Position numbers and translations under genes: made by a program. Source: Escherichia coli (GTDB lineage Bacteria; Pseudomonadota; Gammaproteobacteria; Enterobacterales; Enterobacteriaceae). Taken from it: a stretch of 64,000 bases of DNA. A model generated the notes under the pieces. It searched no databases, had not been told where the DNA came from, and saw only the letters and a list, made by a program, of their open reading frames with translations. The stretch lies in assembly GCF_022846255.1 (NCBI RefSeq), contig NZ_AP025682.1; one strand, 5' to 3'. Each line of letters begins with the position of its first letter. The stretch's first letter is position 1. Positions 30,345-30,360 of this stretch are shown piece by piece.

Positions 30345-30360
30345 TGGCATGAGATCTGCA
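30345..30360 (+). promoter_or_regulatory. Sigma-54 (-24/-12) promoter for the ddp operon
   Basis: TGGCAT-N5-CTGCA matches TGGCAC-N5-TTGCA with correct GG/GC spacing, ~45 bp upstream of ddpX. Confidence 0.6.

Follow-up and report, generated by a model that had tools for sequence, protein, structure and literature searches.

Escherichia coli carries an operon, ddpXABCDF, for a D-Ala-D-Ala dipeptidase and a putative D,D-dipeptide ABC transporter; later citing papers credit Zimmer et al. (2000) with first placing it in the NtrC regulon. At glnAp2, the promoter to which we liken that of ddpX, the NtrC-bound enhancer lies roughly 80–140 bp upstream of the start. In vivo, sigma-54 occupies a site ahead of ddpX in the ChIP-seq data of Bonocora 2015 (OS16, FAT 10; PMC4591121), and NtrC occupies the same region in nitrogen-starved cells, in which Brown 2014 assigned a ChIP-seq peak to ddpXABCDF (PMC4066584). 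The dosP/ddpX spacer was also recovered by gSELEX with RpoN holoenzyme (Shimada 2021; PMC8743547). In vitro, gel shifts on a ddpX probe demonstrated binding of NtrC, binding of RpoN holoenzyme and formation of a ternary complex (PMC8743547). By RT-qPCR, ddpX mRNA increased 104.5-fold on nitrogen depletion, a strong induction that the authors attribute to RpoN and NtrC (PMC8743547). The status of the ddpX promoter in EcoCyc in 2015 was ‘predicted’ (PMC4591121). Published since 2000 and backed by experiment, the sigma-54/NtrC promoter of ddpX is a known case of ordinary regulation.

We analysed the head of this operon in a 64,000-nucleotide stretch of E. coli DNA, referred to here as the window. 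Comparison with annotated E. coli genomes gave the gene order dosP–ddpX–ddpA, with ddpA directly after ddpX, and supplied the name of dosP (open reading frame 27725–30148, the stop codon ending at 30148). ddpX, the first gene of the operon, occupies 30405–30986 on the plus strand in the open reading frame list and encodes 193 amino acids; its product matches the Pfam Peptidase_M15 D-Ala-D-Ala dipeptidase (1e-78), and RefSeq annotates it as ddpX in matching genomes. The gap between dosP and ddpX measures 256 bp. A terminator scan detected an intrinsic-terminator-like hairpin and T-run downstream of dosP (30158–30185, plus strand), which separates dosCP from ddp transcription. There was no Rfam family in 29800–30800 at E ≤ 1, and hence no known leader RNA. 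When window positions 30140–30420 were aligned with K-12 MG1655 and ATCC 8739, the dosP–ddpX intergenic sequence was identical save for one A: the run at 30302–30306 has five A residues in the window compared with six in K-12 and ATCC 8739. The promoter region (30240–30420) is present in 4274 of 5426 complete E. coli genomes, and some part of 30100–30500 was matched in 5391. The five-A form is rare, since Z142-6 is the only listed complete E. coli genome with 100% identity over 30240–30420 and the next listed reaches 99.5%; genuine variation or a sequencing error in the homopolymer could account for it.

Positions 30344–30360 on the plus strand hold the 17-mer ATGGCATGAGATCTGCA, which is identical to OS16 letter for letter (PMC4591121). 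Its core motif, TGGCATGAGATCTGCA, spans 30345–30360, with GG at 30346–30347 and GC at 30358–30359. The 10-nt gap between the two dinucleotides is canonical for sigma-54 (TGGCAC-N5-TTGCW), and the motif lies in sense orientation with its end 44 nt from the ddpX ATG at 30405. A preliminary description of the window had read the same element, TGGCAT-N5-CTGCA with correctly spaced GG and GC about 45 bp before ddpX, and had proposed a sigma-54 matrix scan as a check. Our main matrix was built from the 41 ChIP-verified intergenic sense sites of Bonocora et al. 2015, with ddpX left out. The scan with this leave-one-out matrix bore out the earlier reading: the ddpX site scored 15.86 bits, the best of 127,968 window positions and near the median of the real sites used for training (median 16.27, range 8.9–21.5). 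With a second matrix, derived from 18 EcoCyc-confirmed promoters, the site scored 12.5 bits and ranked seventh. Its departures from the strongest consensus are A at −26, T for C in TGGCAC and C for T at −14. Because the confirmed-promoter matrix ranks it seventh and below all its training sites, the ddpX element is, as far as its sequence goes, a middling sigma-54 match.

The sequence match is not significant window-wide by itself, because about 0.4–0.6 such matches are expected per window by chance. The pattern TGGCAY-N5-YTGCW has a single match in the window versus 0.44 expected, and 36 of 100 shuffles contained at least one; first-order Markov simulations predict about 0.6 matches of 15.86-bit grade in 64 kb when both strands are counted. 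Only five matches of at least 12 bits occur in the 128 kb of window sequence scanned, and simple arithmetic from the matrix scan gives a chance of roughly 1e-3 for a sense-orientation match within the 256-bp gap just before a start codon. It is the position of the element, together with its conservation in orthologous loci, that is unlikely to have arisen by chance. On the basis of the matrix score, the identity with the ChIP-seq site and the conservation, we conclude with a probability of about 0.93 that 30344–30360 is ddpXp, the sigma-54 (RpoN)-dependent −24/−12 promoter of the E. coli ddpXABCDF operon.

Applying the rule of PMC4591121, which puts the start 19 nt past the centre of the motif (here 30352), we infer that transcription begins at 30371 on the plus strand. 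The OS16 entry, which predicts the start by this rule, gives 34 as the distance to the gene (PMC4591121), agreeing exactly with the 34 nt from 30371 to the ATG at 30405 in the window. The literature covered yielded no mapped transcription start for ddpX. The predicted short 5′ leader (30371–30404, plus strand), as read from the sequence, carries a Shine–Dalgarno-like AGGA at 30394–30397, and the string ACAGGAA(A/C)CGT ahead of the ATG is common to the window and Citrobacter.

Given that the match alone falls short of significance across the window, it might be incidental, and a sigma-70 or sigma-S promoter within the gap might be the one that serves ddpX. Lessard et al. reportedly described stationary-phase, RpoS-dependent expression of ddpX in 1998, which would suit a sigma-S promoter. 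Arrays of O157:H7 EDL933 also identified ddpXA as RpoS-dependent (PMC2907692), and a −10-like TATAACT at 30307–30313, lacking a recognisable −35, is a possible sigma-S candidate. The preliminary description had named a lack of NtrC sites together with a mapped sigma-70 start as grounds for abandoning its reading; our consensus scan of 30000–30500 detected no sigma-70-type promoter, and RpoD gSELEX lists only an internal ddpA/ddpB promoter and none upstream of ddpX. Instead, the sigma-54 site is indicated by both ChIP-seq data sets (sigma-54 and NtrC), by the gel shifts and by the induction ascribed to RpoN and NtrC, and its motif is moreover conserved across genera. We therefore regard transcription from a sigma-70 or sigma-S promoter in place of ddpXp as very unlikely. 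Because ddpXA is RpoS-dependent in the O157:H7 arrays and the lone −10-like TATAACT is present, a sigma-S promoter or an indirect route may add to ddpX expression, beside the sigma-54 promoter and not instead of it.

We then compared the region upstream of ddpXp with the NtrC consensus TGCACCAnnnTGGTGCA, which has 14 scored positions in a 17-bp dyad. In its strict form, the enhancer search proposed in the preliminary description came out negative: no canonical box with up to three mismatches occurs in the dosP–ddpX gap, and the whole window contains five such matches versus 3.6 expected, no more than chance. Three TGCAC pentamers are, nonetheless, clustered at 30258, 30269 and 30279. NtrC-like box A, TGCACCAAAACTGCACT (30258–30274, centre about −105), combines a perfect left half with a poor right half and has mismatches at 5 of the 14 positions, as scored on the same sequence in locus L034. 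NtrC-like box B, TGCACAAATGTTGATCA (30279–30295, centre about −84), matches best within the 120 nt that precede the promoter, with 4 of 14 mismatches versus 6.4 in shuffles (P = 0.015). The boxes are spaced 21 bp apart, two helical turns, on the same face of the helix, and lie 60–90 bp upstream of the −24 element. Upstream of the promoter, the block TGCACCAAAA(C/G)TG(A/C)ACTACGCTGCACAAATGTTGATCA is nearly invariant in Escherichia, Citrobacter and Enterobacter, with flanks that diverge until they are unalignable. Because of this conservation and their position, boxes A and B are most likely the NtrC sites, candidates that the phylogenetic footprint supports rather than proves. The E. coli NtrC boxes thus defined appear unusually degenerate yet conserved.

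A second sigma-54-like 17-mer, CTTGCACCAAAACTGCA (30256–30272), scored 12.8 bits and ranked third, but it lacks the GG and overlaps box A. In Citrobacter and Enterobacter its −12 GC has changed to TGAAC while the TGCACC half is retained, and we rejected it as a promoter; it seems better read as an NtrC half-site forming part of box A. Strain CAVP880 lacks box A, its dosC being joined at about 30286. Of two GATC (Dam) sites, the one within box B (30290–30293) is conserved in Citrobacter and Enterobacter, and the one between the −24 and −12 elements (30353–30356) is not; both are probably there by chance. The stretch between the enhancer-like boxes and the promoter is an AT-rich spacer (30296–30343), in which a 7-bp inverted repeat, AAAGTTA/TAACTTT (30296–30302 and 30309–30315), flanks the variable A-run. 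With five A residues in that run, the distance from enhancer to promoter is 1 bp less than in K-12. The Citrobacter and Enterobacter spacers contain GTTAA…TTAAC-like repeats at other spacings. We also considered an IHF site between the boxes and the promoter, where the stretch GATCAAAAGTTAA has about three mismatches to WATCAANNNNTTR by eye, and do not claim it.

The lack of a canonical NtrC box in the gap, and the fact that the conserved upstream block is an imperfect dyad, could be taken to mean that ddpXp is a genuine sigma-54 promoter served by some other enhancer-binding protein, the binding of NtrC being adventitious. Against this stand the NtrC ChIP-seq peak in nitrogen-starved cells (PMC4066584) and the shift of the ddpX probe by NtrC with formation of a ternary complex (PMC8743547). 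Together with the mRNA induction, these data also document the control of the ddp operon by NtrC and nitrogen limitation that the preliminary description had invoked (PMC4066584, PMC8743547). The 80-bp NtrC peak interval contains the sigma-54 motif and is too low in resolution for placing NtrC sites (PMC4066584), and the gel-shift primers, when located on the window, bracket about 30074–30482, the whole intergenic region (primers from PMC8743547). In other genera, near-canonical NtrC palindromes with two or three mismatches are found upstream of the promoter. Activation by a protein other than NtrC is, on this evidence, highly improbable.

The conservation of the promoter was followed by scanning DdpX relatives in one genome per species, which gave 80 loci. 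Two other Escherichia-lineage loci have the identical 17-mer 43–44 nt ahead of ddpX, and about 65 of the 80 species loci have a −24/−12 motif of 12–18.6 bits ahead of the orthologous operon. Other genera have no good motif just before ddpX; they have a strong one about 950 nt upstream, for example ATGGCACGCGTCCTGCA, followed by an extra open reading frame. This arrangement was seen in Citrobacter, Enterobacter, Lelliottia, Franconibacter, Mixta, Brenneria, Lonsdalea, Pantoea, Serratia, Raoultella, Pluralibacter and Rahnella, among others. Over 73 promoter regions, the best upstream NtrC match averages 3.9 mismatches versus 6.2 in shuffles. Huaxiibacter has a variant of box B with a better right half (TGCACAAATGTTGTGCG, three mismatches), and Serratia (TGCCCAAATGTTGTGCA, three mismatches) and Raoultella (TGCACCTTCTTTGTGCA, two mismatches) have better NtrC palindromes ahead of the promoter; the Enterobacteriaceae isolate at locus L051 has a palindrome there with two mismatches (TGCACCGATTTTGTGCA). 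Between box B and the promoter, Citrobacter and Enterobacter have 12 bp more than the window, which adds about one turn of the helix. These comparisons amount to a phylogenetic footprint, that of a sigma-54 promoter and an enhancer of the NtrC type.

The comparison across genera also bears on whether sigma-54 holoenzyme bound at ddpX is productive. Many sigma-54 ChIP sites are not known as productive (PMC4591121), and repressor-like roles have been proposed for some bound holoenzymes (PMC8743547); the holoenzyme might accordingly be mainly non-productive or repressive here, and ddp expression might come from dosCP read-through. The terminator-like hairpin after dosP speaks against read-through, however, and the 104-fold induction of ddpX mRNA upon nitrogen depletion, ascribed by the authors to RpoN and NtrC (PMC8743547), speaks against an unproductive complex. 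In many genera whose upstream neighbours differ, moreover, the motif sits like a promoter ahead of the operon. We consider a mainly non-productive role to be barely credible.

With ddpXp as a productive sigma-54 promoter, its operation can be sketched on the model of glnAp2. Sigma-54 holoenzyme would bind the GG and GC elements (30346–30359) as a closed complex, unable to open the DNA alone. On nitrogen limitation, phosphorylated NtrC (GlnG) would assemble upstream, most likely on boxes A and B (30258–30295), an identification of the NtrC boxes that we infer from conservation and position. NtrC would oligomerise on these weak boxes and, by analogy with glnAp2, would meet the holoenzyme by looping across the AT-rich spacer. 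ATP hydrolysis by NtrC would then drive formation of the open complex, and transcription would proceed from near 30371 through ddpXABCDF. Such a promoter explains the presence of a D-Ala-D-Ala dipeptidase and a putative transporter during nitrogen starvation, when a peptidoglycan-derived dipeptide could be scavenged as a nitrogen source.

The extra open reading frame of the other genera stands first in the operon and, in most Enterobacterales, separates ddpX from the sigma-54 promoter; about 60 of the loci L006–L083 show it (for example, 546–1486 of L006, from Citrobacter youngae). Its product, of about 288–297 amino acids, has an RpiR-type HTH_6 domain (1e-8) and a weak SIS match of 0.006, below the Pfam cut-off. 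A palindrome, TGTTA-N6-TAACA, is present in 59 of the 73 promoter regions versus 0 of 73 shuffles (for example, 564–579 of L006). It starts 1–3 nt past the −12 element (18 nt in Serratia), so that it either covers the predicted start or lies just after it; about 30 nt further downstream there is usually a second repeat, TGACAG-N5-TAACA. We regard the two repeats as a candidate operator for the RpiR-family protein.

The three Escherichia sequences have neither the RpiR-family gene nor the palindrome, and window positions 30361–30404 contain no counterpart. Similarity between Escherichia and Citrobacter ends right after the …CTGCA of the −12 element. Local alignments matched AAGCGGAAAGCGC (30362–30374) with codons of about 20–24 of the regulator gene in four genera, each match being non-significant (P = 0.07–0.2), and a MAFFT alignment was convincing only over the ribosome-binding region. 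The simplest reading is that Escherichia lost both the RpiR-type regulator specific to this operon and the putative operator, which brought the nitrogen-controlled promoter directly before ddpX. The direction of change, a loss in Escherichia, follows from the taxonomic distribution only, as there is no clear scar. We lean slightly towards the view that an ancestral promoter under dual control was reduced to the present ddpX promoter of E. coli, with ddpXABCDF left under nitrogen control alone. If this is true, ddpXABCDF would be without its presumed substrate-specific control in Escherichia, which would matter when ddp regulation is extrapolated from E. coli to Citrobacter, Enterobacter, Serratia and Pantoea. 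The literature covered, gathered for the promoter itself, contained no description of the RpiR-gene and operator arrangement. It is this comparative picture only, namely the degenerate but conserved NtrC boxes and the suggested loss of regulator and operator in Escherichia, that is possibly new.

Among described systems, the closest is ddpXp of E. coli K-12 itself (OS16; a member of the NtrC regulon), which is the same locus with the same 17-mer and an identical intergenic region, the sole difference being one fewer A at 30302–30306, between the NtrC-like boxes and the promoter. With glnAp2, the paradigm NtrC/sigma-54 promoter, whose sigma-54 motif is TTGGCACAGATTTCGCT (PMC4591121), ddpXp shares the −24/−12 element, the dependence on nitrogen limitation and, with boxes A and B as the putative enhancer, a pair of neighbouring activator sites at a comparable distance from the start. 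The two differ in their enhancers: the NtrC dyads of glnAp2 are strong and nearly perfect examples of the TGCACCAnnnTGGTGCA type, whereas the ddpX boxes have four or five mismatches and good left halves only. The −24 region of ddpX (ATGGCATGAGATCTGCA) is nearly the same as those of yeaGp (ATGGCATGAGAGTTGCT) and argTp (ATGGCATAAGACCTGCA) (PMC4591121), and all three promoters combine TGGCAT with an A at −26, which is less usual there; an NtrC ChIP-seq peak is on record for yeaGH as well (PMC4066584). They part at the −12 element, which is CTGCA in ddpX and TTGCT in yeaGp and argTp, and in the genes downstream. Finally, the ddp promoters of Citrobacter, Enterobacter, Serratia, Pantoea, Raoultella and other genera resemble that of Escherichia in having a sigma-54 motif and an upstream NtrC-like block, but in those genera the palindrome and a gene for an RpiR-type protein of about 290 amino acids stand between promoter and ddpX, whereas the Escherichia promoter lies 44 nt from ddpX.
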